Positions 49,562 to 63,288 of a stretch of DNA of 64,000 nt are shown piece after piece; the stretch's first letter is position 1; every line of letters begins with the position of its first letter. The notes below the pieces were generated by a model. The model was not told where the DNA came from. It did not search any database and saw only the letters and a program-made list of their open reading frames with translations. Source of the DNA: Candidatus Latescibacterota bacterium (GTDB lineage: Bacteria > Latescibacterota > UBA2968 > UBA8231); NCBI GenBank assembly GCA_965203175.1, contig OZ241867.1, positions 2,144,001-2,208,000 of the forward strand, written 5' to 3'. Position numbers and translations under genes: made by a program.

Positions 49562-50278
49562 TCAGCCGTTGGGAACCCCGCCGAGATAAATCACCTGCCC
49601 GGTGACCGCTTCGCTTTCCCGCCGCAAGAAGAAGTCCAGCACGTTTGCGACATCGGTAAAGGTCCCTAGCCGCCTGACGACCATGGGGTCGATAAGTTGC
49701 TCGATTTTGTCTTTTGGCACCCCTCGGATCATGTCGGTCTCGATCGGGGACGGGCCAATCACGTTCACGGTGATTCCGTACTCCGCTAGTTCTCTAGCCA
49801 TGACCTGCGAAAGGCTTTCCACCGACGCCTTTGACGCGGCGTACGCCGATTGACCGGCCAGCCGCATGGGAACCGCCAGTGAGCTGAAGTTGACGATGCG
49901 CCCGTACTGGCGTTTTCGCATCAGCTTCGCTGCTTCGCGGCTGACTAGAAATGTGCCCACGACGTTGGCGCTCAGCATCTTTTCGATGGAAGCCGCTGGC
50001 GTCAGCAAGAAGTGGTTCATCGAGGCGACTGCCGCGTTGTTGATTGCAGCGTCTAGCCGGCCGTAGCGCCGTTTGATCTCGCGAAACAGGGATTTGACCT
50101 GCGGTTCGTCGGAGACGTCGGCCTGCAGGTGCAGGAATCCCTCTGCCTCCCAGCCCGCGTCGCCACGGCTGCAGCCGACCACTTGGTAGCCGCAGCCGAG
50201 CAGATGCTCGACCAAGGCCCTGCCGATTCCCTTGCTGGCTCCAGTCACTAGCGCCACTGGGTTCGATTCGCCGTTCAT
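49562..50278 (-). CDS. FabG-like SDR (CmlJ-like position)
   Basis: TGASKGIG, NNAA, YAASK. Confidence 0.88.
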   Translation of the reverse strand: MNGESNPVALVTGASKGIGRALVEHLLGCGYQVVGCSRGDAGWEAEGFLHLQADVSDEPQVKSLFREIKRRYGRLDAAINNAAVASMNHFLLTPAASIEKMLSANVVGTFLVSREAAKLMRKRQYGRIVNFSSLAVPMRLAGQSAYAASKASVESLSQVMARELAEYGITVNVIGPSPIETDMIRGVPKDKIEQLIDPMVVRRLGTFTDVANVLDFFLRRESEAVTGQVIYLGGVPNG

Positions 50279-50290
50279 GGGATGGCCTGC

Positions 50291-50617
50291 CTATTCGCTG
50301 ACAGCTTTCAGGGCATCGTCTGCCGGGGCACCGGACAATTCCAGGATGTAGTCCGCCAGCGCGTCAATCGTGCGGAAGGGGCTCCGTCGGCGGGAAAACG
50401 CGTCCTCGCTGACCAGTGTTACGTCGATCTGGTGCTCTTCTTCGAGAATCGACTCGACGCTGGTAATGAGGGTCACCAGCCCCATGGAGTTGATAATGGC
50501 CTCGGAACCCAACAGCGGTGAGTCGCGGTTGACCTGCACGGACTCTTCCACGCCTTCTTCTTCAAGGGCGTCAGCCGCTAGGCCGATCATCAGCTCGATT
50601 AGCTCGTCTTTCTGCAT
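50291..50617 (-). CDS. Acyl carrier protein
   Basis: Acidic 108 aa; INSMGLV phosphopantetheine site; SPFRTI. Confidence 0.8.
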   Translation of the reverse strand: MQKDELIELMIGLAADALEEEGVEESVQVNRDSPLLGSEAIINSMGLVTLITSVESILEEEHQIDVTLVSEDAFSRRRSPFRTIDALADYILELSGAPADDALKAVSE

Positions 50618-50642
50618 GTTTTTTCCTTTTGTTGAATTAGTC

Positions 50643-52367
50643 TCAGGAGATGTCGTCCTCGGCACCAACCCCGCCAAAGCGCAAGGCCGCGCGAATCTTT
50701 ACCAGATCGCCGTTCTGGTCAAATCCCCGCAGGAAGTCGCCCTCAATCAGTCGGCCGATGACCTGCACGGGCGTGCCTTGACCCTTTAACTCCTTCAACT
50801 TCCCGGCCAGCTCTCGATAGCTCAGAGGATGGCTCTTCAGGCTCGCGAAGAGCCGGCGGTGGTTTTCGGTAAGGGCGTAGGTGGTCATGGTCCGACCGTG
50901 CTCGTCAGCGATGAAATGCTGACGCTCGAGCGCGAACGAAGTCGGATGGACCTTGAAGGATGGCACTAGCCGCACCTCGTCGGCAACCCAGGTGATGCGG
51001 ACCATCCGCCCGAAATCCTTCATCAGTTGGCTGGCCCAGCGCACCCGGCGCAGCGAGAGTTCGGTCTCGTCGAAATGGTCGGTGACCTCGTTTTTGTTGT
51101 GTTGCCAGAGGTCGGCCAAGGTAGCAGCGCGCGCCTCCAGCTCTTCAACGCCCTGTGCGCCAGCGTCCACCTGCTGGCCGGAGAGCGCGGTAAACCACTC
51201 CTTGCCAGCGAACCGGCTGTCTTCCGCCCCGGCGATTTTGCGCTGCCGCCAGAACGTGGAATCGAGTGCGGAGTTGGCAGAATAGAACGCGGCTAGAAAT
51301 TGGTGATAGCGGTTGTAGGCCTCTCGATAGGACTGTTCGTACCACTGGTGGATCTCGTCGGCGTCCTGGGGATTGCGGTACAAGTGATCAATACCGGCCG
51401 CGGCCATCATTGCCGAGTAGGTCGCCAGATGTACGCCCTGTGAGAACAGCGGGTCGATGAAGCAGGCTGAGTCGCCGCAGAGAAAGGCGCGGCCCAGCGA
51501 CAGCGAGGAGGCATCATAGGCCCACTCGCGTATAACCCGCACGTCTTCGCAGCGCGTGGCATTTTCTAGGATTTCCATCGCCAGTGGACACATCTCCAAG
51601 CACTGCTGGTAGAACGTCTCGATCCCGCTGTCGCGCATCCGGGCGCTGGCGGACTTGTCGGTTACTACCCCCACGCTGTAGATGTCGTCCTGCAATGGTA
51701 TGATCCAGATCCATCCTTCCGCGAACGCAACTGAGAATATGTTGCCGTCTAGGTCGCCTTGGAACCGCTTGCCGCCCTTGTAGTAGGACCAGACCGCCAT
51801 GTTCTGGAAGTACTGGTCGAACTGCCGCATTTTCAGCTTCTTGGCGATGATGCCACGGGACCCGGAGGCGTCGATGATGAAATCGCCCTCCAGCGTGCCA
51901 CTGGAGTCGCTGTTTTTCCAGCTCACGGCGACGGGACTGCCGTTGCCGTCGGTCTGTATGTCGGTGACTTCGTGCTCCTCGCGGACATCGGCACCGCGCT
52001 CGCGGGCGGCGTTCAGTAGGATCTGATCGAATTCAGCGCGGGTTACTTGGTAGGCGTGGTCGTACACCCAAGGAGCGGTCTTGGGCGTTGAGAAAGTGAA
52101 GGTCCAGGGAGTCTGCTCTGGGCCCCAGATGAACGTCGCGGCCCGCTTCTCGACGAAATTCGCCGCCTTGATGCGGTCCATCACCCTCAGCCGGGTCAGG
52201 ATCGCCATGGTTCCGGGCAGCAGCGATTCTCCCACTCGATAGCGGGGAAACTTCTCCCGCTCGAACACGACCACATCGCGTCCTAACTTCCGCAGACAGA
52301 GCGCGGCGATGCTGCCAGCGGGTCCGCCGCCGACGATCACAACCCGCTGCACTTTGTTATTTGACAT
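50643..52367 (-). CDS. cmlS: Flavin-dependent halogenase, CmlS (chloramphenicol halogenase) type
   Basis: GGGPAG, FPRYRVGESLLPGT, GWIWIIP (WxWxIP), WAYD, CGDSACFIDPLFSQGVHLA, C-term L.FGGVG as recalled for CmlS. Confidence 0.9.
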   Translation of the reverse strand: MSNNKVQRVVIVGGGPAGSIAALCLRKLGRDVVVFEREKFPRYRVGESLLPGTMAILTRLRVMDRIKAANFVEKRAATFIWGPEQTPWTFTFSTPKTAPWVYDHAYQVTRAEFDQILLNAARERGADVREEHEVTDIQTDGNGSPVAVSWKNSDSSGTLEGDFIIDASGSRGIIAKKLKMRQFDQYFQNMAVWSYYKGGKRFQGDLDGNIFSVAFAEGWIWIIPLQDDIYSVGVVTDKSASARMRDSGIETFYQQCLEMCPLAMEILENATRCEDVRVIREWAYDASSLSLGRAFLCGDSACFIDPLFSQGVHLATYSAMMAAAGIDHLYRNPQDADEIHQWYEQSYREAYNRYHQFLAAFYSANSALDSTFWRQRKIAGAEDSRFAGKEWFTALSGQQVDAGAQGVEELEARAATLADLWQHNKNEVTDHFDETELSLRRVRWASQLMKDFGRMVRITWVADEVRLVPSFKVHPTSFALERQHFIADEHGRTMTTYALTENHRRLFASLKSHPLSYRELAGKLKELKGQGTPVQVIGRLIEGDFLRGFDQNGDLVKIRAALRFGGVGAEDDIS

Positions 52368-52386
52368 GGCGGCTAACTCTCTCCTC

Positions 52387-53730
52387 CTAGCGTCGGATCT
52401 TTTTGAAGCGGTAATTAACCTGTCCTTCGGTGACCACTTTGACCTTCACCGGGAGCATGAACGGCTGCAGGCGTCCCTTGCAGTAATCGGCAATCTGCTT
52501 GCGCATTTGAACTCCTGACACTGTTTCTTCCATCTGTACAGTAGCAGTGACGACGTGGCCCATAAGCAGGTGTTCCTCGCCCTTTACGGATACGTCGATG
52601 ACCCCGTTCATCTCGGCGATGACCTGTTCCACCTCTGCGGGGTACACCTTCTGGCCACCGACGTTAATAATGTCCGACTGCCGCCCTAGGATGCGGTAAT
52701 AGTCGCCCTCCCGGATCACCGAATCTCCAGTGTCGAACCACCCGTCCGCGTCGAATGGACTGGGCGCGTTCAGGTATCCCAGCATCGACGATTGGGCTCG
52801 GATCTGCAGCCTGCCGTCCACAACTCGGGTTTCGTAGTCCTCACCGCCTATCTTCACCAGCAGCGAATCGCTGGATGCGGACTTGGAGCGCAGGATGCCG
52901 AGTTCGCTGAGGCCGTAGGTCTGTAGGAAGCGCGCTTGCGGAAACGCTTCGTTGGCCATCCTGAGCGTGTGCTCCGGCATCACCTCGGTGCCGTAGGTGA
53001 TCAAGCGGAGCGACGAAAGGTCGTGCGATTTGTGTGCCTCGGACAGCAGCATGAGGTTCAGGAACGACGGCGATGTCGGCAGCAGTTCCACTCGGTGTTT
53101 CTCGATGGTCCGGCAGACGCTGGCAATGCTGTGGTCGGCCGCCACCACCACGCAGCCAAGGTTGGCCAGGGTGTAGCAGAGCGTGTTGAATCCGCCGATG
53201 TGATCGAATAGGAGAAACGCGAGCGTCCTGTAGCAGTGTCGGGGTTTGCGGAACTTGTTGAGCAGTTCCGGCAAGCTGTGTAGAATCGCCTTCGGTTTGC
53301 CGGTGGAGCCGGAGCTAAAGAGTACCAGTCCCGCCTTGTCTGCCGCCCGTAGTTGCTCCATTAAGGGGTGGTTGCGCTGGTTTTCGAGCTTGATCGCGAT
53401 GCCTTGATCCTGCCTGTCTATCTCTACGCGATGATCGAGCTCGGCGATCTTGAAAAACTCCTGATGCTGGTCTTGCGACTCCCACGAAAGCGGCACGAGG
53501 ATGCAACGCATCTTCAGCAACGCCAGCAAGCAGGACACCGCGCCCGGCGAGAAGTCGGCTAGCACCCCCACCGAGTCCCCGGCGCGGATACCCGCCGCCT
53601 CTAAGTGGCTGAGCCACTGCTCGTAGCGATCAGTCAGCTCGGAATAGGTACAGGCGCGATCGCGCCAGATGATGGCCGGACGATCCCCGCCTTCCCGGAA
53701 ACGCCGTAGCTGCCAGTCGATATGCTCCAT
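52387..53730 (-). CDS. AMP-dependent acyl ligase (CmlK-like)
   Basis: FSSGSTGKPK, TYGLSE, GWFDTGD, GR..DIINVGG.KVYP.EVE. Confidence 0.88.
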   Translation of the reverse strand: MEHIDWQLRRFREGGDRPAIIWRDRACTYSELTDRYEQWLSHLEAAGIRAGDSVGVLADFSPGAVSCLLALLKMRCILVPLSWESQDQHQEFFKIAELDHRVEIDRQDQGIAIKLENQRNHPLMEQLRAADKAGLVLFSSGSTGKPKAILHSLPELLNKFRKPRHCYRTLAFLLFDHIGGFNTLCYTLANLGCVVVAADHSIASVCRTIEKHRVELLPTSPSFLNLMLLSEAHKSHDLSSLRLITYGTEVMPEHTLRMANEAFPQARFLQTYGLSELGILRSKSASSDSLLVKIGGEDYETRVVDGRLQIRAQSSMLGYLNAPSPFDADGWFDTGDSVIREGDYYRILGRQSDIINVGGQKVYPAEVEQVIAEMNGVIDVSVKGEEHLLMGHVVTATVQMEETVSGVQMRKQIADYCKGRLQPFMLPVKVKVVTEGQVNYRFKKIRR

Positions 53731-54182: not shown

Positions 54183-55223
54183 ATGAATAGCATGGATGAG
54201 CTGCCAGCGTTTCCCGAGGGATGGTATTTCGTCGCAAGCCGTGAATCCATTCTGCGAGAGAAACTGATCGAGAAGAAATGGCTGGGCGAGGAAATCGTCG
54301 TCTGGTGCGACGAGGCAGGCCGCGTCTGCGTGGCCGACGCGGTATGCCCGCACCTAGGCTCGCACCTAGGGCCGGAGGCCGGCGGTCAGGTATGCAACGG
54401 TCGCCTCGTCTGTCCGTTTCACGGGTTTGAGTACGATACGACCGGCCAATGCGTTGCGACTCCGAATGCCCCGGCACCTAAAGCAGCGAAACTGAAGGTA
54501 TACGAGACGCGAGAGATCCTCGGCATGGTCTTCGCTTGGTGGGGAAGCGGAGGCCGGCCCTCGCAGTGGGACCTGCCAACCGAGCCAACCACTGGACAAG
54601 AGTGGTGTGAACTAGGATTCAACGTACTCCGGTTCCGTGGACATCCCCAGGAAACAACCGAGAACTCCGTGGACCTGGGACACCTGCGCTACGTGCATGG
54701 TTACGACAATGTAAATCTAGTCGGTTCGGTAACGGTGGACGGCGCCTACCTGAAGAGTTGCTTCGACTTCAGACGGGTTCGAAAAATTGCCGGGACGAGC
54801 AGTATGTACGATTTATCGGCCGTCACCCATGTTTACGGACTGGGCTACTCCTTCGTCGAAATCCACGAGAAGACTATCGATATGAATGCGAGATTGTGGG
54901 TACTCGCAACGCCTATCGACCGCGGGCTGGTCGAGATGGTACTGGTGAGCCAGATGCGGGAAATCCGCAGGCCCCGGCGATTCATCTCAGGCTTGGGGTT
55001 TCTGCCGATGAAGCTGCGCCACAGGCTGATGAATCGCATTTGGATGTCACAACAGCAACGGGATGTCCTGCAGGATGTGGTGATCTGGGAACGGAAGCGG
55101 TATCGGCCTACCCCTAGGCTGTGCCGCGCCGACGGCCCCATAGGGAAATACCGTCGATATTGTCGGCAGTTCTATCCTGATCCGACGATTGCGACGGGAA
55201 GTGGGGAATCGATCGCCGACTAG
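54183..55223 (+). CDS. Rieske non-heme iron oxygenase, KshA/Neverland (sterol) type
   Basis: FPEGWY, CPHLG..CPFHG, ENSVDLGHLRYVH, QD..IW.RK.Y..P.L...DGPI..YRR...QFY. Confidence 0.85.
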   Translation: MNSMDELPAFPEGWYFVASRESILREKLIEKKWLGEEIVVWCDEAGRVCVADAVCPHLGSHLGPEAGGQVCNGRLVCPFHGFEYDTTGQCVATPNAPAPKAAKLKVYETREILGMVFAWWGSGGRPSQWDLPTEPTTGQEWCELGFNVLRFRGHPQETTENSVDLGHLRYVHGYDNVNLVGSVTVDGAYLKSCFDFRRVRKIAGTSSMYDLSAVTHVYGLGYSFVEIHEKTIDMNARLWVLATPIDRGLVEMVLVSQMREIRRPRRFISGLGFLPMKLRHRLMNRIWMSQQQRDVLQDVVIWERKRYRPTPRLCRADGPIGKYRRYCRQFYPDPTIATGSGESIAD

Positions 55224-55244: not shown

Positions 55245-57272
55245 TCAGACGGGCAGTTGGCGCTTCTGTTCGGCGATGTGAAACTTCAGCTTCTTGCTCG
55301 GTTTCAGCGATGGAAGCGGGCTGAACCGGAGCTTGTAGTTGGCGGGGGACACCTCGAGCGTAAAGTAATGCGCGATCAGCAGCACGTTGACAGCCAGTTG
55401 CAGTTCCATCCACCGCGAGCCGAGGCATGTGTGCGTGCCCAATCCGTACGGCGCGTACCCGGGACTGCGGTGCTCATTGCGTGGAGGCCGATAGCGATCA
55501 ATATCGAATGTGAAGGGGTCTGGGAAGACGTCGTCCATGTAATGGGGGGCCGTCTGGGCAATGTAGACCCGCGACCCCACTGGTAGTTCGTAGCCCTCGA
55601 CCACACACAAATTCATCACGTCGCGCATAGACATCGGGACAATCGGGTACATGCGCATGCACTCCATGAGGAAGCGGTGCGTGACGTCGATGGCGGATGG
55701 GGTGAAGGCTTCGCCATCTGGATCGCCGTTTTCAAACAGGGCATGGGCTTCACGGCGGATTCGGTCGTAGAGCGCAGGCTGTGAGGCCATGGCGTAAACG
55801 GCGAAGCTAAACGCATCGCCAAGGTACACGCTGGCAATCAGCGCGGCAGATAGGGCGAAGCGCAGGTTCGACTCCGGCACGAACTGCGGATCGCTCGCGT
55901 GTAGGCTTAGCCAGTCATCGGCAAGGTTGCGCGGGCAACCAGCCCGCTGGGTGGGCGTATGGACACTCTGGATCCGTTCCAGCAACGTGTCCACGGCTTT
56001 CGCCCGGCGTTTCATTCCCGGGGTTTTCAGCATGAATTTGGGCAGGGCCTTAACGACGTGCGTGCTGAGTGCTCGTTCCTTGTATTTTATTAGATCGTCG
56101 ATGATATCCTGCGTATCAACGCTGACGGAGAGGGGTGAGATTTGCGCGTTGATCATTAGTCGGCACAAGCGCGTTGCAGAGAAGGTGTCCCCAACCTTCC
56201 AATCCGCCATGTAACTACGGGCGTGATGGTAGAGTTGATCCAGCTGCGCTACCAGTCTCCCGCGTGAGTACGCCGGCCCCATAGCCTTGCGCAGCCGGAA
56301 GTGATCCGCGCCATCTAGAGAAGGCAATACTCCAGACGCACCATAGACTTTCTCGAAGTCGGCAAAGTAGTCCCGGGCTCTCAGATACATCCGCCCGTGC
56401 CGATGCACCCAGTGGTTTATCTGTGGCCCGGCGATGAAGATCATGGGTTTGGCAAACGGCGGACGGATCTCAAACACTGGGCCATACTTTTGTGTAAGCT
56501 CTGCTAAGAGCGCGGGAACGTTGCCGTCTCGCACATGGGGATTGAGCAGCAACTGACGTAGCGGGATAGCTGGAATTTGCTTGGTTAGGTGGGAACGTTG
56601 CAGTAACGGGCTGGCGATGTTTTGCTCGACCGCCTCGGCTATGGAGCGGCCGATCAAGTCCATCTGGCAGATGGACTTGATTCGCTCTTCGGCTTCGTCA
56701 TCAAGTTGGAATATGAAGCGAAAGACGTCGCACGTATTGACGAGGCAAATAACGATGATGTCTCTCGGAGTGGGTATCGCGTCGGTAAAGATATACCTCA
56801 TGATACGCAACTTGATAAACTCACCTGCTGTATCTTCTATGGAGTTGCTGTACAGTTCCGTCTGCCAGCCGGTACGAGCCAGCGTATAGAAATCGCCGTC
56901 GTGGTGATCCAGGATCTTCAGGCGAACCAAGCGGTCCAGTGTCAAATCAATGACTGACTCCGCACGGGGGGCGAGCCGTTCAATCCAGTACTGGGTGTTC
57001 TGTTGAACGGGTTCGCTTGCAATTTCTTTCAGAATGGGGTCTAAGACGGGGTTGCCCGTTTCGGTCTGGTCCACGAGGAACAGGGATTCCATGTCCGTGT
57101 CGATGCGCGACAGGAGGGAGAGCTCCGCGAGTACTGCGCCGACGACAGCGCAGTTCAAATCCCAGCCGGGTACTTGGTGAAAGTAGCCGTTCTCCTCGTT
57201 GAGGAGCAGCAGGATGAGCTCTTCGGGCAAACTGAGCGATTGGGTCGTCGAACTCTCTTTAGTAGCAGCCAT
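55245..57272 (-). CDS. GPP34/GOLPH3 domain-cytochrome P450 fusion
   Basis: N-term LSLPEELILLLL..GAVLAELSL..RI..TGNPVLD; C-term ECMR (ExxR), FDIDRY, YGLGTHTCLG; start at ATG 57272. Confidence 0.85.
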   Translation of the reverse strand: MAATKESSTTQSLSLPEELILLLLNEENGYFHQVPGWDLNCAVVGAVLAELSLLSRIDTDMESLFLVDQTETGNPVLDPILKEIASEPVQQNTQYWIERLAPRAESVIDLTLDRLVRLKILDHHDGDFYTLARTGWQTELYSNSIEDTAGEFIKLRIMRYIFTDAIPTPRDIIVICLVNTCDVFRFIFQLDDEAEERIKSICQMDLIGRSIAEAVEQNIASPLLQRSHLTKQIPAIPLRQLLLNPHVRDGNVPALLAELTQKYGPVFEIRPPFAKPMIFIAGPQINHWVHRHGRMYLRARDYFADFEKVYGASGVLPSLDGADHFRLRKAMGPAYSRGRLVAQLDQLYHHARSYMADWKVGDTFSATRLCRLMINAQISPLSVSVDTQDIIDDLIKYKERALSTHVVKALPKFMLKTPGMKRRAKAVDTLLERIQSVHTPTQRAGCPRNLADDWLSLHASDPQFVPESNLRFALSAALIASVYLGDAFSFAVYAMASQPALYDRIRREAHALFENGDPDGEAFTPSAIDVTHRFLMECMRMYPIVPMSMRDVMNLCVVEGYELPVGSRVYIAQTAPHYMDDVFPDPFTFDIDRYRPPRNEHRSPGYAPYGLGTHTCLGSRWMELQLAVNVLLIAHYFTLEVSPANYKLRFSPLPSLKPSKKLKFHIAEQKRQLPV

Positions 57273-57355: not shown

Positions 57356-60300
57356 TTATTCTGAGTTGAAACCAGAACTGCCGCGCGAAGCAATCAGACG
57401 CAGATGGATGGTCGAAAGAGCGGGAACGACCATCATAAGTATGGCCGTGACAAAGAGAATGCCGCAACCGAGCGATGCGGCAAAGGGGATCAGGAACTGG
57501 GCCTGAATGGCGCGTTCTAGAATGAGGGGTGTGAAGCCGAGGAAAGTAGTCACGGAAGTGAGCATAATCGGACGAAAACGTCCCTTAGCGCCCTCTATGA
57601 TCGCAGTGCGCACCGGGGTGCCTTCCCTGAGTTTCTGATCGATGAAGTCGATCATGACCAGGGAATCGTTCACTACCACGCCGCTTAGGCCGAAGATACC
57701 CATAAAGGATACCGCGCTCAGGGCTACTCCGAGGACCCAGTGCCCTAGGATCACTCCGATGAACCCGAATGGGATGACGGCCATGATGATGAACGGTTTG
57801 GTATAGGAGCGGAGAGGGATGGCAAGCAGCACGAAAATCATGATCAGGGCAATCGCAAATCCGCGACGCAGCGCACCTAGGGACTCGAGTTGCTGTTGTT
57901 GTTCACCGCCAAATGTATATGTCAGGTCCGGGTGCAAGGCGGTCAAGTCCGCGAGGATCGAATTGGCCAGGATGCTGTTGGCTTCGTCGCCGGAAATCAC
58001 GGAAGGGTCCACGTCCGCGGTGACCGTGACGACGCGCTGACCATCCTTCCGGGGAATGGCCGGCGGCGACATGCCCGAGTTGAGCGAGGCCACACTCATA
58101 ACCGGGACCTCGGCCCCGCTCGGCGTACGGAGTAGGTACCCTTCGACATCGGTGATGGAATTCCGCTCATCAGCGGGCAGGCGCACGTAAACCCGGACCT
58201 CTTCCCGGCCGCGCTGCACCCGGACGGCCTCTGCGCCGAAGAACGCGGCACGCGCTTGTCCGGCCAACTCTTCAAGCGTGAGACCGAGGGTCCGCGCCTC
58301 CGGTCGCAGTTCGAGCTGAACTTCTGGGATGCCCGGGGTGTGATCCGAGCGCACGTCGTAGACGCCTCCTATTCCACGGAGACCATCGACCACGGAGTCC
58401 GCGATCTGGACGAGGCGCTCCGGGTCTGGATGGGAAAGCACGGCCTCGACAGGGTTGCCTAGGTCGATGACTTTGCCGCTGAAGGTGATGCCGCGCACGT
58501 AGGGCAGCACACCCACTTCCTCCCGCCATGCCTGCGCGAAGTCTACGGTGGAGATCTCTCTTTGCCGCGCGCCTAGGAGCTTGAATTCGATGGTGGCGAC
58601 ATTGGCTTCCGGATTGAGGGTTGGCTCCGGATTAAGCCCCCCGCCCTGGACTCTTGGCCGCTGTCCGACGATCGCGGTTACACCGGTCAGCAGCGGAGGC
58701 GCATCTTCGGGCCGGTTGCGCGAAATTCGTTCGATAACCCGGTGGCCTGCGGCCTCCAGTTCTTTCGCCACCTCGTACGTCTGCGGCGCGGTCGCCCCAT
58801 CGGGCATCTCCAGAGTGACCGTTGCGAAATCCCCCTCGACGTCAGGGGCCAATGTAGTAGGGACGATACCCGCCCAAATCAGGGAGATACTCAACACGAG
58901 TATGCCCACGGCCCCCGCCATCGTTACCACGGGCTGGTCCGTCGCGAACCGCAGCGCCCGATCTAGAGGGCCTTGCACGAACCTGTTTAGCAGCACGTCC
59001 ACGCGACCCTGGATTCGTGCGAAGAACCGATCGAAAGCGTTTGTTGGCACCCATTCCGGGCCGTGCAAATGGGACAGGTGGTTGGGCAATACCAGCAGCG
59101 ATTCGACCAGAGAAATTAGCAGGATGGCGATCATGATGATCGGTAGTGCCCGCCATGACTCACCGATACCACCGGGGATGAACAGTAGCGGGACGAAGGC
59201 CACCACCGTAGTGAGGACTGCGAATGTCAATGGGACTTTTATCCGACGTGCGCCGCGGACCGCAGCCACGATCCCGGGTGTTCCCCGCTTGCGTTCGTAT
59301 TGGATGTGCTCGGCTACGACGATGGCATCGTCGACGATAATACCTATGGCGAGGATAAACGATAACAGGCTTTGGGCGTAGATCGCGACGTCGAGTACCA
59401 ACATGGCCGCCAGGGCGCCGATGCCCGAAACGGCGAGGCCGACGGCGACCCACAGGGCAAGCCGGATTTCGAGAAACAAGCTAAGTGCGATCAACACCAG
59501 CAACAGGCCCAGAATACCGTTCTTGAGCAGAATATCGGCGCGTTCCTCGTAGTCTTGGGATTCGTCATTCCAAATGGTGATGCCTACCCCGTCTGGCAGA
59601 GCCGGGATTACCTCGTTCGCCAAGTGCTCTCGGACGGTTGTGGCGACATCCATCACATGTTCACCATCAGCCCGGTAGACCTCGACGAATACCGCGGGAT
59701 GGTTCTGATGCCGGACAATCAGGTCGGTTTCCTGAAAACCGTCGCGAACCTCGGCGATATCGCCAAGGCGCAAAACCGTGCCGTCAGTGCCTGTGAGAAG
59801 GACGATCTCTTCGAAATCCTGTTGGTCGTAGTTCTGGCCGAGGGTCCGGACCCGCACTTGGGATTCCCGGGTATCGATACTGCCGGCAGACAAATCGAGG
59901 GAACTGCGACGAATCGTGTTGGCGATGTCGGTGAGTGTAAGTCCAAGGGCTCTTAGCCGATGGAGCGGCACCTCGATAGAGATTTCGTATTTCCGCACTC
60001 CACTGACCTCGACCTGGGACACGGAGGGAAGCGCCGTCAGTTCATCCTCGATCTGGTGCGCCAATTCCTTCAGCGAGCGCTCAGATACATCGCCATAAAC
60101 AATAAGCCGTATCATGCTCTGACGATTGGTCATCTCCTTGAATTGGGGACGTTCGGCTCTGGCTGGGAAAGACTGTATGCGATTGACGGCAGACTCGATA
60201 TCGTCCAACGCCTGCGCCATGTCCGTACCGGAATCCATTTGAATTCGGACGGATGCTATACTTGGTGCCGCTACGGACTTGACCGCCTTTACGTCATCCA

Positions 60301-60553
60301 ACCCGCTGACCTGGTCCTCGATCTTGACGACGATCGACTCCTCCACTTCCTCTGGTGTGGCACCGGGATAGGCCATCGAAACTTCAATGTGGTAGAAAGG
60401 GACCGTCGGCCATGCTTCGCGCTCTAGGCCGGTCAGCGACACCAGCCCGGCGGCGATGATAGCCCACATCAACAGATTGGCGGCTACACTGTTGCCCGCC
60501 ATGTAGGCGATCGGGCCGGATGGTTCCTTGTGATTGCCGTTGTCAGAGCTCAT
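57356..60553 (-). CDS. RND efflux permease (AcrB family)
   Basis: GIIVDDAIVVAE, RFRPIMLTS.TT, 1065 aa. Confidence 0.95.
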   Translation of the reverse strand: MSSDNGNHKEPSGPIAYMAGNSVAANLLMWAIIAAGLVSLTGLEREAWPTVPFYHIEVSMAYPGATPEEVEESIVVKIEDQVSGLDDVKAVKSVAAPSIASVRIQMDSGTDMAQALDDIESAVNRIQSFPARAERPQFKEMTNRQSMIRLIVYGDVSERSLKELAHQIEDELTALPSVSQVEVSGVRKYEISIEVPLHRLRALGLTLTDIANTIRRSSLDLSAGSIDTRESQVRVRTLGQNYDQQDFEEIVLLTGTDGTVLRLGDIAEVRDGFQETDLIVRHQNHPAVFVEVYRADGEHVMDVATTVREHLANEVIPALPDGVGITIWNDESQDYEERADILLKNGILGLLLVLIALSLFLEIRLALWVAVGLAVSGIGALAAMLVLDVAIYAQSLLSFILAIGIIVDDAIVVAEHIQYERKRGTPGIVAAVRGARRIKVPLTFAVLTTVVAFVPLLFIPGGIGESWRALPIIMIAILLISLVESLLVLPNHLSHLHGPEWVPTNAFDRFFARIQGRVDVLLNRFVQGPLDRALRFATDQPVVTMAGAVGILVLSISLIWAGIVPTTLAPDVEGDFATVTLEMPDGATAPQTYEVAKELEAAGHRVIERISRNRPEDAPPLLTGVTAIVGQRPRVQGGGLNPEPTLNPEANVATIEFKLLGARQREISTVDFAQAWREEVGVLPYVRGITFSGKVIDLGNPVEAVLSHPDPERLVQIADSVVDGLRGIGGVYDVRSDHTPGIPEVQLELRPEARTLGLTLEELAGQARAAFFGAEAVRVQRGREEVRVYVRLPADERNSITDVEGYLLRTPSGAEVPVMSVASLNSGMSPPAIPRKDGQRVVTVTADVDPSVISGDEANSILANSILADLTALHPDLTYTFGGEQQQQLESLGALRRGFAIALIMIFVLLAIPLRSYTKPFIIMAVIPFGFIGVILGHWVLGVALSAVSFMGIFGLSGVVVNDSLVMIDFIDQKLREGTPVRTAIIEGAKGRFRPIMLTSVTTFLGFTPLILERAIQAQFLIPFAASLGCGILFVTAILMMVVPALSTIHLRLIASRGSSGFNSE

Positions 60554-61764
60554 GGTGTCGGGTCAACTTCCGTCAGGACGCGCATGCTTTCTGTGGCAAA
60601 CAGGATACCACCGGTGATGACGGCTTGGCCGCTTGCGAGTGTGCCGGTCACGTATACCTCGTCGTTGGTGCGTTGTAGGACCTGTACCGGAACGATACTC
60701 ACCACGCCGCCATCATTCACGATCCAAACCTCGTTGCCGGGTCGCAGCGCCGCTCGCGGCACCTGATAGTATCCATCCAATTCAAGACCCTCTATTTCCA
60801 CCTCGACGAATTTACCAACCAGAAGCGGGGGACTGCCGTCAAGAGGAACGGTTCCGTCCATCGGGCTACCTGAATGAATTGGGTCCGGTACGCGCACGAT
60901 CACGTCGATGGTGCGCGTTTGCTTGTCCAAGGATGCCTCGCCACGGTCCACGTAACCTTCCCAGGCATAAGTTCCGTCGCCGTACCGAGCAACTACGCGC
61001 ACTGCCACGGTCCGATTCCCGTCTCCCGCCGAAAGTGACCACAGCCCCGGGATCAAAGCCGCATCGGAATCGGACAAGGGGACGATTACTTCCACGGCAT
61101 CCGCGGCGAAAATCCGCGCGACGGGCTGGCCGGCCGCCAGGATTTGTCCCACATCCACGGATTCTTCCTGCACAAAACCAGCAAAGGGAGCAGTTACCTT
61201 GGTTCTGGAGAGGGCGAGATTAGCATCGGCGAGCCTGGCCTCGTCGCGGTTAAGCGCGGCCTGAGCCGCGTTCAACTGAGGTTCCCTTAGCGCGAGAGGA
61301 TTCGCTGTGGACGGCGAAGCTTCATCCCCTTGTCGCCCTGAGTAAAGTTCGTACTGTGCACGGGCAATCGATGCCTGTTCCTGCTCTTTAAGTAAAGCCA
61401 CTCGGCTGGCCGCGAGATTGGCCTCTGCTTCCTGCACCCGGTATTGATAATCGACCTCTTCGATGCGGAAGATCGTTTGGCCCGCCGCTACCCGTCCTCC
61501 GCTTTGAAATCCCGGATCCACCCAGACGATCTTGCCACCCACTTGCGGAACGATATCGATCTCCGCGCTGGGCCTCACGGTACCGGAGCCAAATACCGGT
61601 ATGGGTCCCGTACCGGCTGTAACTAGGCTAGTCTGCACGAACGGTACTTGGGGAGGCTGTTCGGTGCGGGTCGGTTCGGGTGCCAGTGAAATCAAAAAAG
61701 CAGCCAAACCAACGGAAACCACGATAATGACGCCGGCAATTATAAAACTGGATATGCGGGACAT
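60550..61764 (-). CDS. RND membrane fusion protein
   Basis: N-terminal TM, PQVGGKI, APFAG, coiled hairpin. Confidence 0.92.
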   Translation of the reverse strand: MSRISSFIIAGVIIVVSVGLAAFLISLAPEPTRTEQPPQVPFVQTSLVTAGTGPIPVFGSGTVRPSAEIDIVPQVGGKIVWVDPGFQSGGRVAAGQTIFRIEEVDYQYRVQEAEANLAASRVALLKEQEQASIARAQYELYSGRQGDEASPSTANPLALREPQLNAAQAALNRDEARLADANLALSRTKVTAPFAGFVQEESVDVGQILAAGQPVARIFAADAVEVIVPLSDSDAALIPGLWSLSAGDGNRTVAVRVVARYGDGTYAWEGYVDRGEASLDKQTRTIDVIVRVPDPIHSGSPMDGTVPLDGSPPLLVGKFVEVEIEGLELDGYYQVPRAALRPGNEVWIVNDGGVVSIVPVQVLQRTNDEVYVTGTLASGQAVITGGILFATESMRVLTEVDPTP

Positions 61765-61770
61765 GGCGAT

Positions 61771-63288
61771 TTACTCCGTGGAAGTCGAAAGAATACTCGA
61801 CCGGGCGCTCTGCTGGAGGGCTTCCCTTTCGTTGGCGGTCCACGCGCCGCCCAAGGCGCGGTGCAGCGCAAGACGCGCATACCCCAGATCACGCGCTGCC
61901 GTTGCCAGTACGGATTGCGTACCTAGGAAGGTGTGCGTCGCCGTCAGGAAAGACTCATAGTCCCCCACTCCAGAGACATACCGCTGCTCCTGTAACGCAG
62001 CTTCTGCCTGAGCCTCTTCCACTAGGGAAGCGAGTAACGAATAACGGCGGTGCCTGGCTTCCAGCCCCACAAGGGCGGCCTCAACCTCGTTGACCGCGGT
62101 TACCACCGAACGTCCGAAGGCGGCGGCAGCTTCATTTAGGCTGGCTTCGGCAAGCGCAACATTGCTGCGCAGCCGTGAACCTTGGAATACGGGGCCAAGC
62201 AGGTTCAGGCTCAGATTCCGGAACCATTGATCCGGATTAAACAGCTCACCTGACTCCGTACTTTGCAGCCCGATAGAACCAGACAGGGACAATTTCGGCA
62301 GCAAATCCGCGCGGCGGGCCCCAACTGTGTAGCGGGCCGCTTCCACCCGCTGCCTTGCCGCGCTGACGTCAGGCCGCTGCACCAGGAGATCGGCTGGAAT
62401 GCCTGCCGGAACGGGGTCGAGGGCTGTGGAAGATGTCAGGGAATCGGGCAGCAAATCCGCGAGGTCTGCGCGGTACCCTCCCAGAAGCACCCAAAGTCGC
62501 CCCTCGGCATCCGCCAGCAGCGCTTCGATTTGCGGCAACTCGGCTTGCGCATTGCGCAGATTCTGCCGTGCCGTAAAGAGGCCGCGCGTATCGGTCAGCC
62601 CGCGGTCATAAAGAGAATCGGCCAACGACTTCCGGTGCTGAAAGATTTCCACGATTTCGCCTGCTAGCCTCTGCTGATGGCGCAGGTTGACGATCTCCAA
62701 GTAGGTTCGCACGGTTTCGGCCAGCACCCCCATGCGGGCCGTCAGGTAGTCCGCTTCCGAAGCCAGCCGCTCGGCTCCGGCGGCGCGCGCGTCGTTGCGA
62801 TTGCGGCCCCAGAAGTCGAGTTCGTAGGCGAATTCCGCGCCAAGGGTGTAGGTAGTCAGGCCGAGCCGGTCGGGGATAGTTATACCGGAGGCGCTCAGGG
62901 CGTCTGAGCCCAGACCAACCTCTTCTAGTTGCGCTCCGATGCCCGCATTCGTGGGCGCATCGAAGTCGTTGACACCAACCGAAGGTTGAAGCAGTGGAAA
63001 CGCCGAGGATTTGGCGATGCGTTCCCGCGCCCTAGCCTGATCGACCCGGGCGACCGCCCCGGCTAGGTCGAAGTTCGAGGCAAGCACTGCTTCGATTACT
63101 TGGTCGAGAACCGGGTCAGCAAATGATTTCCACCACTCCAGCGGCTCGTATGAGCCGGCAACTTCACTGCCGGCAAACTCGTTGGGTAACTCCGCAACCG
63201 ATGCGGGAATCGGGGGAGGCTTCAGTGTAAGGGAACAAGCGGAGATGAGAGAGCCGACGATTACCGAAAACAGCAGTCTGATTGGCAT
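61771..63288 (-). CDS. Outer membrane efflux lipoprotein (OprM/NodT)
   Basis: Lipobox LISAC, WW..F.DP.L, YELDFWG, RPDV.AA, L.RALGGAW. Confidence 0.93.
   Translation of the reverse strand: MPIRLLFSVIVGSLISACSLTLKPPPIPASVAELPNEFAGSEVAGSYEPLEWWKSFADPVLDQVIEAVLASNFDLAGAVARVDQARARERIAKSSAFPLLQPSVGVNDFDAPTNAGIGAQLEEVGLGSDALSASGITIPDRLGLTTYTLGAEFAYELDFWGRNRNDARAAGAERLASEADYLTARMGVLAETVRTYLEIVNLRHQQRLAGEIVEIFQHRKSLADSLYDRGLTDTRGLFTARQNLRNAQAELPQIEALLADAEGRLWVLLGGYRADLADLLPDSLTSSTALDPVPAGIPADLLVQRPDVSAARQRVEAARYTVGARRADLLPKLSLSGSIGLQSTESGELFNPDQWFRNLSLNLLGPVFQGSRLRSNVALAEASLNEAAAAFGRSVVTAVNEVEAALVGLEARHRRYSLLASLVEEAQAEAALQEQRYVSGVGDYESFLTATHTFLGTQSVLATAARDLGYARLALHRALGGAWTANEREALQQSARSSILSTSTE

Follow-up and report, generated by a model that had tools for sequence, protein, structure and literature searches.

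In the present study, the window (the whole stretch of 64,000 nucleotides that was analysed) was found to carry a real fusion gene in which a GPP34/GOLPH3-fold domain is joined to a cytochrome P450, and this gene belongs to a clade in which one residue of the P450 I-helix has been deleted. Unlike the full-helix fusions, the deletion clade is tied to a Rieske oxygenase of the KshA/Neverland type. From the sequences and their gene context we consider it somewhat probable that the protein is an intracellular sterol-tailoring P450 with an atypical oxygen activation, acting on imported sterol. The features of the fusion and its neighbours are collected in Table 1.

Table 1. Position of the fusion gene, its domains and motifs and its neighbouring genes in the window
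Feature	Position	Strand	Remarks
GPP34-cytochrome P450 fusion gene	55245..57272	-	675 aa; GPP34_L, I-helix-deletion clade
GPP34/GOLPH3-fold domain	56622..57230	-	aa 15-217; Pfam 92 bits, cut-off 29.1
P450 domain	55287..56534	-	aa 247-662; Pfam p450 112 bits, cut-off 22.8
I-helix motif LIASVYLGD	55815..55841	-	aa 478-486; helix one residue short
ExxR motif	55653..55664	-	E537-C-M-R540
Heme-ligand Cys616	55425..55427	-	kept in 120/121; one row gapped
Rieske oxygenase, KshA_C domain (KshA/Neverland group)	54183..55223	+	core partner
AcrB-type RND permease	57356..60553	-	83 bp upstream of fusion; subfamily linked in 31/81 loci
RND membrane fusion protein	60550..61764	-	16/81 loci
RND outer membrane efflux protein	61771..63288	-	10/81 loci

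The fusion gene and its GPP34 domain

The reverse-strand translation of the fusion gene has zero internal stops. The ORF caller had preferred a longer frame from a TTG at 57467, which overlaps the RND gene, and the homologs align from the ATG at 57272. PF05719 is followed by PF00067 within one chain, which is the defining order of GPP34_L, and both Pfam domains were present in 120/120 of the best homologs (best 120 of 2106 matches, from 8000 scored candidates). In the genome scan, 213 of 236 candidate stretches were confirmed and 80 loci from nine named phyla were retained, all encoding the fusion, with frameshifts in a few of them. In addition, contigs that bridge the domain junction were found in runs X1, X3 and X6, which belong to three studies and of which X1 is possibly the source sample. 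A read-through artefact was ruled out by the two-domain homologs, the 80 loci and these contigs, and the fusion with intact ExxR and heme Cys that had been proposed by the sequence-only reading is borne out by Pfam domains, motifs and homologs alike. No NCBIfam family scored above its cut-off. The AlphaFold model of the protein had a mean pLDDT of 90.3 and a pTM of 0.85.

The fusion P450 is the sole PF00067 match in the source genome, which also holds one stand-alone GPP34. Among named loci, Latescibacterota MAGs come nearest (about 90% identity), and other relatives bear the names of sponge symbionts, e.g. Ca. Palauibacter irciniicola. Fusions of different phyla share a median identity of 70%, the phyla are not monophyletic in the fusion tree, and the identities of P450 and Rieske show a moderate correlation (rho 0.49 across phyla, 59 loci); together, these fit lateral spread with some reshuffling. 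In the RNA look-up no holder was listed, and a promoter scan was uninformative (0 sites vs 2.2 expected by chance).

When folded alone, the N-terminal domain matched GOLPH3 (3kn1) with Z 18.4, rmsd 2.5 and 22% identity over 191 aligned residues, and Vps74 (2zih) with Z 18.2, while the next match reached Z 6.0. A profile match to GOLPH3 (E 1e-8) and the Pfam score of 92 bits agree with this, so that the naming of the domain as GPP34 was correct. The first half of the domain (window 56613-57272, model residues 12-145) also gave weak winged-helix matches at Z 5-6.

The earlier reading had inferred a membrane-targeted P450, noting that eukaryotic GOLPH3/Vps74 binds PI4P membranes, and a targeting through PI4P was weakened. 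The PI4P pocket of GOLPH3 consists of W81, R90, R171 and R174 (PMC2806290). In a profile alignment with full-length GOLPH3 these residues map to V34/P35, V44, E105 and I108, the assignment of the Trp being the least certain of the four, with a conserved W37 lying 2-3 residues off. None of the four is kept in any of the 121 sequences compared (no Trp at 34-35, no Arg or Lys at 44, 105 or 108), and the net charge of the domain is -20. Since the PI4P residues are absent, the long-form GPP34 has a GOLPH3 fold without the known lipid site, and it would most likely serve as a dock to a membrane or to a partner protein rather than as a PI4P reader. The domain directly precedes the proline-rich start of the P450; in eukaryotic P450s, the membrane anchor lies just before a proline-rich hinge.

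GPP34_L has been proposed as a secreted PI4P-binding effector, with no enzymology given in the text available to us, and in this model it binds host phagosomal PI4P and blocks phagosome maturation (PMC11706023). For the protein studied here we regard this as very improbable. The GOLPH3 fold is genuine, and the long form is reported to occur in sponge symbionts only and to be expressed in Aplysina (PMC11706023), but none of the four PI4P residues is kept in 121/121 homologs, the domain is acidic and the gene context of the deletion clade is metabolic. Moreover, no basic-hydrophobic signal-peptide pattern was seen by inspection at the N-terminus, and hydropathy averaged over 19 residues peaks (1.89 at residue 172) inside a helix of the folded domain. 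The lost PI4P residues and the lack of a signal peptide argue against the secreted-effector model for the long deletion-clade form. The model is less affected for the short GPP34, because the equivalent of R174 is kept in 19/19 of these proteins and the aromatic-basic hydrophobic hairpin is kept as well.

Several observations were made on GPP34 proteins of other composition. The stand-alone GPP34 at L081:1450-2103 (G000:C1:592057-592644) adjoins an ammonium transporter, and its orthologs are 66-91% identical across the class; no conserved context was seen by inspection of 20 loci of the stand-alone short form. One protein (P0136, 872 aa) is a tandem GPP34-GPP34-P450 and another (P0202, 444 aa) is a GPP34-GPP34; neither is among the four architectures listed in PMC11706023. 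These tandem sequences hint that short and long GPP34 forms may pair. At L185:5587-7530 and L186:5648-7591 the GPP34 is 78-81% identical to the query and the P450 only 51%, with another deletion-type helix, and these identities suggest domain swapping within the deletion clade.

The P450 domain and its shortened I-helix

By its fold, ExxR motif, heme Cys pocket and propionate-binding residues, the C-terminal domain is a member of the P450 superfamily, and the heme-binding residues H324, R328, R550, H614 and C616 are all kept. By sequence, bacterial CYP51 and CYP120A1 come nearest among solved structures, with an identity of about 20%. By fold, P450s were matched at Z 30-37 with no clear winner, and the fatty-acid P450s CYP184A1 and BM3 scored as well. 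A search of the Atlas with the P450 part returned generic P450 clusters only. P450 families are drawn at the family level by a 40% identity rule. The domain falls outside CYP51, with 20% identity in the structure match and a motif that differs from AGHHT.

The earlier description of an I-helix without the acid-alcohol pair holds. The AGx[D/E]T motif occurs in 0/121 close homologs, and among these 121 sequences (query and best 120 homologs) A480, S481, Y483, G485 and D486 are invariant and there is no Thr after an acid. The change goes beyond substitutions, as one residue is deleted: the helix from P466 to P499 has 34 residues in the query vs 35 in most of the family. Furthermore, the Tyr-x-Gly-Asp form was found in 79 of 80 matched helices, which come from 77 of the 80 loci, the other three being unmatched by the pattern.

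The family was sampled through the best 150 50%-cluster representatives, of which those of at least 400 aa were retained; 45 rows, query included, were full-length fusions with ExxR and Cys. A helix of 35 residues was present in 37 of these and one of 34 in eight, by which the non-canonical helix was rejected as a trait of the whole fusion family; the strict AGx[DEH]T is found in 25 of the 37 more distant, full-helix representatives. In a 67-row P450 tree, made by a quick method with I-helix columns excluded and midpoint rooting, a single branch with SH-aLRT 100 separates the 10 rows with a short helix from all others. The deletion is most simply derived, because unfused relatives and CYP51 have the full helix.

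Some members of the deletion clade (P0130, P0167 and L162) retain AGHYT, which in one possible register aligns Tyr483 with the acid and Leu484 with the Thr; in the alternative register, counted back from the conserved C-terminal half, Tyr483 takes the place of the Thr. As read from the alignment, the acid-alcohol pair is lost in the query under either register. A decaying P450 was ruled out by a dN/dS of 0.10-0.22 for the P450 domain in 9/9 colinear pairs, with lower values still for the I-helix (0.014-0.10, 9/9 pairs). As judged by these ratios, the rebuilt I-helix is under strong purifying selection.

The acid-alcohol pair has a role in the O2 activation of P450s, and precedents without it are CYP74, CYP8A and substrate-assisted chemistry. 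CYP74 and CYP8A were absent among the top PDB matches listed for the P450, which does not speak against a chemistry of their kind. In the query, O2 activation would proceed without the Asp/Glu-Thr pair, with Tyr483, Ser481, Asp486 or a substrate hydroxyl as a stand-in. With its selected one-residue deletion in the I-helix and its missing acid-alcohol pair, this P450 lineage may activate oxygen by a route that is as yet undescribed.

Gene context and proposed function

The Rieske gene and the fusion are convergent, and their stops are 21 bp apart. Genes lying up to 8 kb from the fusion were counted as linked, in a set of 81 loci made up of the 80 retained loci and the window. The Rieske was found in 64/81, an FAD oxidoreductase in 44/81 and a sterol C-24 methyltransferase (SMT) in 42/81; AcrB-type RND and MMPL/sterol-sensing transporters occurred in 31/81 each and either of them in 62/81, ERG4/24 in 3/81 and squalene epoxidase-cyclase in 2/81. 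Of Rieske, SMT, ERG4/24 and cyclase, one or more lay near the fusion in 72/81 loci, and gene order and orientation vary among loci. By phylum, the Rieske was linked in 32/35 loci of Chloroflexota, 11/13 of Pseudomonadota, 8/13 of Gemmatimonadota and 5/7 of Latescibacterota.

In a control scan, metagenomes were searched with 21 full-helix fusions as queries, and 80 of 464 loci were retained (23 fused, 57 unfused or cut). The 19 full-helix fused loci among them (13 of at least 10 kb) had 0 Rieske and 1 SMT, and the 57 unfused or cut relatives had 1 Rieske; in this comparison the neighbour seeds came from the test loci, the control contigs were shorter and partly redundant or from the same studies, and kin are non-independent. 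The remaining four of the 23 fused loci are of a distant deletion type, and the Rieske was present in three of them, the fourth being a 3.3-kb contig. Ten more full-helix loci from the phylum of the window, assigned by identity with the motif seen in three, had no Rieske and no SMT. Among 121 genomes of this phylum, 22 carry a P450 of at least 50% identity (the deletion was checked directly in the window and five others), and all 22 carry the Rieske, in 20 of them within 5 kb; 94 genomes have neither gene, and five have the Rieske only, in each case within 800 bp of the contig start.

Other neighbours were also recorded. Full-helix fusions often lie beside conjugating enzymes, such as sulfotransferase, acyltransferase and ecdysteroid-kinase-like genes (L191:8557-9660, L192:8341-9639, L196:4848-6044, L197:8351-9571, L094:5117-6343), and the ecdysteroid-kinase-like cluster was found in 11 loci, 10 of them fused. 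A second GPP34-P450 copy (28-87% identity) lies within 8 kb of the first in L017, L024, L028, L029, L031 and L033. In L031:10048-15952 and L042:4520-10336, ERG24-like, CYP51-like and fused squalene epoxidase-cyclase genes adjoin the fusion.

The window itself holds, at 49562-53730 on the reverse strand, genes for an AMP-ligase, a CmlS-like flavin halogenase (NCBIfam NF033113, 723 bits, below the cut-off of 900), a small ACP-like ORF with no Pfam match and an SDR, and this set resembles the one that forms the dichloroacetyl group of chloramphenicol. A link of the fusion to the halogenase and AMP-ligase genes was rejected, as both genes were found elsewhere only in L002 and L029. A stretch of lower GC (0.49-0.51) at 45020-46583 encodes an AbiEi_2-like protein and, as judged by inspection, a HigA-like antitoxin.

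Concerning the partner enzymes, the Rieske passes KshA_C, and its best solved relatives are KshA (E 1.5e-23); its nearest Atlas clusters are auto-named cholesterol 7-desaturase, which is a lead only. The SMT passes Pfam Sterol_MT_C, and SMTs of sponge symbionts alkylate sterols in vitro (PMC10070321). The solved relatives of the FAD enzyme are LkcE and a putative amine oxidase, which are not sterol enzymes. In the source genome (93% complete) there was no match to SMT, ERG4/24, oxidosqualene cyclase or the FAD oxidoreductase of the module. Hence the module consists here of P450, Rieske and RND only, and a sterol substrate would be imported, because no cyclase match was found.

We propose that the fusion is an intracellular heme-thiolate P450 which would oxidatively tailor sterols from the host or from neighbouring symbionts. 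It would work with the adjacent Rieske and, in many genomes, also with the SMT, the FAD oxidoreductase and an RND or sterol-sensing MMPL transporter, and its reaction may be a side-chain desaturation (C-22 or C-24) or an oxidation of the Rieske product. The module context suggests that these bacteria chemically remodel sterols from their surroundings. Of the earlier proposal of a membrane-targeted lipid- or sterol-acting P450, the sterol or lipid substrate is backed by the gene context, and the PI4P targeting is the part that lost ground. The sterol-tailoring reading is tempered by the reduced module of the source genome, by the missing redox partner in the module, by the non-sterol relatives of the FAD enzyme and by the P450 itself, which is not close to any characterised sterol enzyme (about 20% identity) and lacks the Asp-Ala signature of CYP710/CYP61.

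A rival to this reading is a reductase-independent peroxide enzyme. It would either use H2O2 or act, by rearrangement or cleavage, on a sterol hydroperoxide or 5,8-endoperoxide that arises after the Rieske has made a 5,7-diene. CYP74 and CYP8A1/CYP5A1 are analogies for such an enzyme. A ferredoxin or reductase of its own is missing from the module, and the source genome (93% complete) gave no match to the reductase family PF14759 or the ferredoxin family PF13459; the loss of both acid and alcohol and the tight tie to the Rieske point the same way. However, an electron donor is required by the Rieske in any case, and the source genome encodes larger proteins with Fer2 and NAD_binding_1 domains. 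In the alignment to CYP51, the Cys pocket shows no long insertion, whereas that of CYP74 has one. We hold the peroxide enzyme to be unlikely.

Quite unlikely, in our estimate, is an enzyme of non-sterol lipids, or a heme protein without catalytic activity that would serve the linked transporter by sterol binding or sensing. It would suit the fatty-acid P450s among the fold neighbours, the missing catalytic pair and a transporter linked in 62/81 loci, but the SMT and the KshA-family Rieske are sterol-specific neighbours and all five heme-binding residues are kept. Steroid catabolism or detoxification, in which a KshA-type 9-alpha-hydroxylation and P450 oxidation would be followed by efflux, appears to us quite unlikely as well. 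The KshA relatives of the Rieske, the RND efflux pump adjoining the fusion and the conjugating genes (sulfotransferase, acyltransferase, kinase-like) beside the full-helix paralogs are in line with it; nevertheless, sterols seem to be built or remodelled rather than degraded, to judge from C-24 methylation and from the ERG24-CYP51-cyclase cluster beside the fusion in L031 and L042, and no recurrent ring-cleavage family was seen among the annotated neighbour clusters.

The sterol-tailoring P450 that we favour would replace an untested effector hypothesis on an abundant symbiont protein with concrete and cheaply testable enzymology. It is not settled which organisms produce the unusual demosponge sterols, and the answer bears on the sterane biomarkers used for dating early animals (PMC10070321). 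The searchable supplements of that paper contain no mention of P450, Golgi, Rieske, GPP34, erg5 or CYP. Symbiont SMTs are already known and their oxidative partners are not. For the idea that the cyclopropyl sterols of sponges arise by a desaturase-like step, no support was found in the one review searched, and it forms no part of our reading.

Comparison with known systems

GPP34_L is the GPP34-P450 architecture of sponge symbionts and makes up 656/663 long GPP34 proteins in the report of Ferreira et al. (2025, PMC11706023), from which it follows that the architecture is already published; the earlier statement that no characterised example is known stands for biochemistry, as no characterisation was found in the literature. 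The words helix, sterol, steroid, heme and signal peptide are absent from the main text of that paper. The query agrees with GPP34_L in the two-domain architecture, the multi-phylum spread in symbionts and a short GPP34 in the same genome. It differs in that GPP34_L is treated there as one group, while we separate from the full-helix lineages a deletion clade that has a Rieske/SMT context of its own. The deletion clade and its gene module were not found in print in a search that covered a minority of subscription journals, and Fig. S11 of PMC11706023 (flanking genes) may bear on the context. The novelty rests on the deletion clade and the module; the fusion itself is no news. Compared with GOLPH3/Vps74, the fold is shared (Z 18.4, 22% identity), but the query has lost the PI4P residues, lacks the 10-residue loop before R171, has an acidic hairpin and is fused to a P450.

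The sterol C22-desaturases CYP710/CYP61 also have a deviant I-helix, A(A/S)QDA (PMC11311414, PMC9368853). The likeness lies in the non-canonical helix and an Ala-Ser at the Ala-Gly site. However, the SRS4 signature FLFA(A/S)QDA(S/T) with its invariant Asp-Ala is not found in the query, which moreover has a one-residue deletion, is bacterial and is without a transmembrane anchor, and it is placed outside CYP710/CYP61. Bacterial CYP51 (Methylococcus) is the best PDB match of the P450 by sequence and profile, but at about 20% identity, and CYP51 keeps AGHHT. Symbionts of Ircinia carry a mobile ERG24-CYP51-LSS steroid gene cluster flanked by SMT (PMC9531527). This cluster adjoins the fusion in L031 and L042 and SMT flanks both, but its CYP51-like protein is a separate gene of 490 aa.

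Capsaspora converts imported cholesterol to ergosterol, which was attributed to a Rieske C7-desaturase, a P450 C22-desaturase and an SMT (PMC4967820), and in the gene set of the deletion clade these three enzyme types likewise come together. By this analogy, it is conceivable, although rather doubtful, that a mobile multi-phylum module of sponge symbionts remodels host cholesterol in the manner of Capsaspora, with a Neverland-like Rieske for the 7-ene, the P450 as side-chain desaturase and the SMT for C-24 alkylation. The P450 would then be a bacterial C-22/C-24 desaturase of independent origin, in which a Tyr is brought over the heme by the shortening of the I-helix. If so, part of the unusual 5,7,22-unsaturated and side-chain-alkylated 'sponge' sterols would be made by bacteria, which could also start from a saturated side chain.
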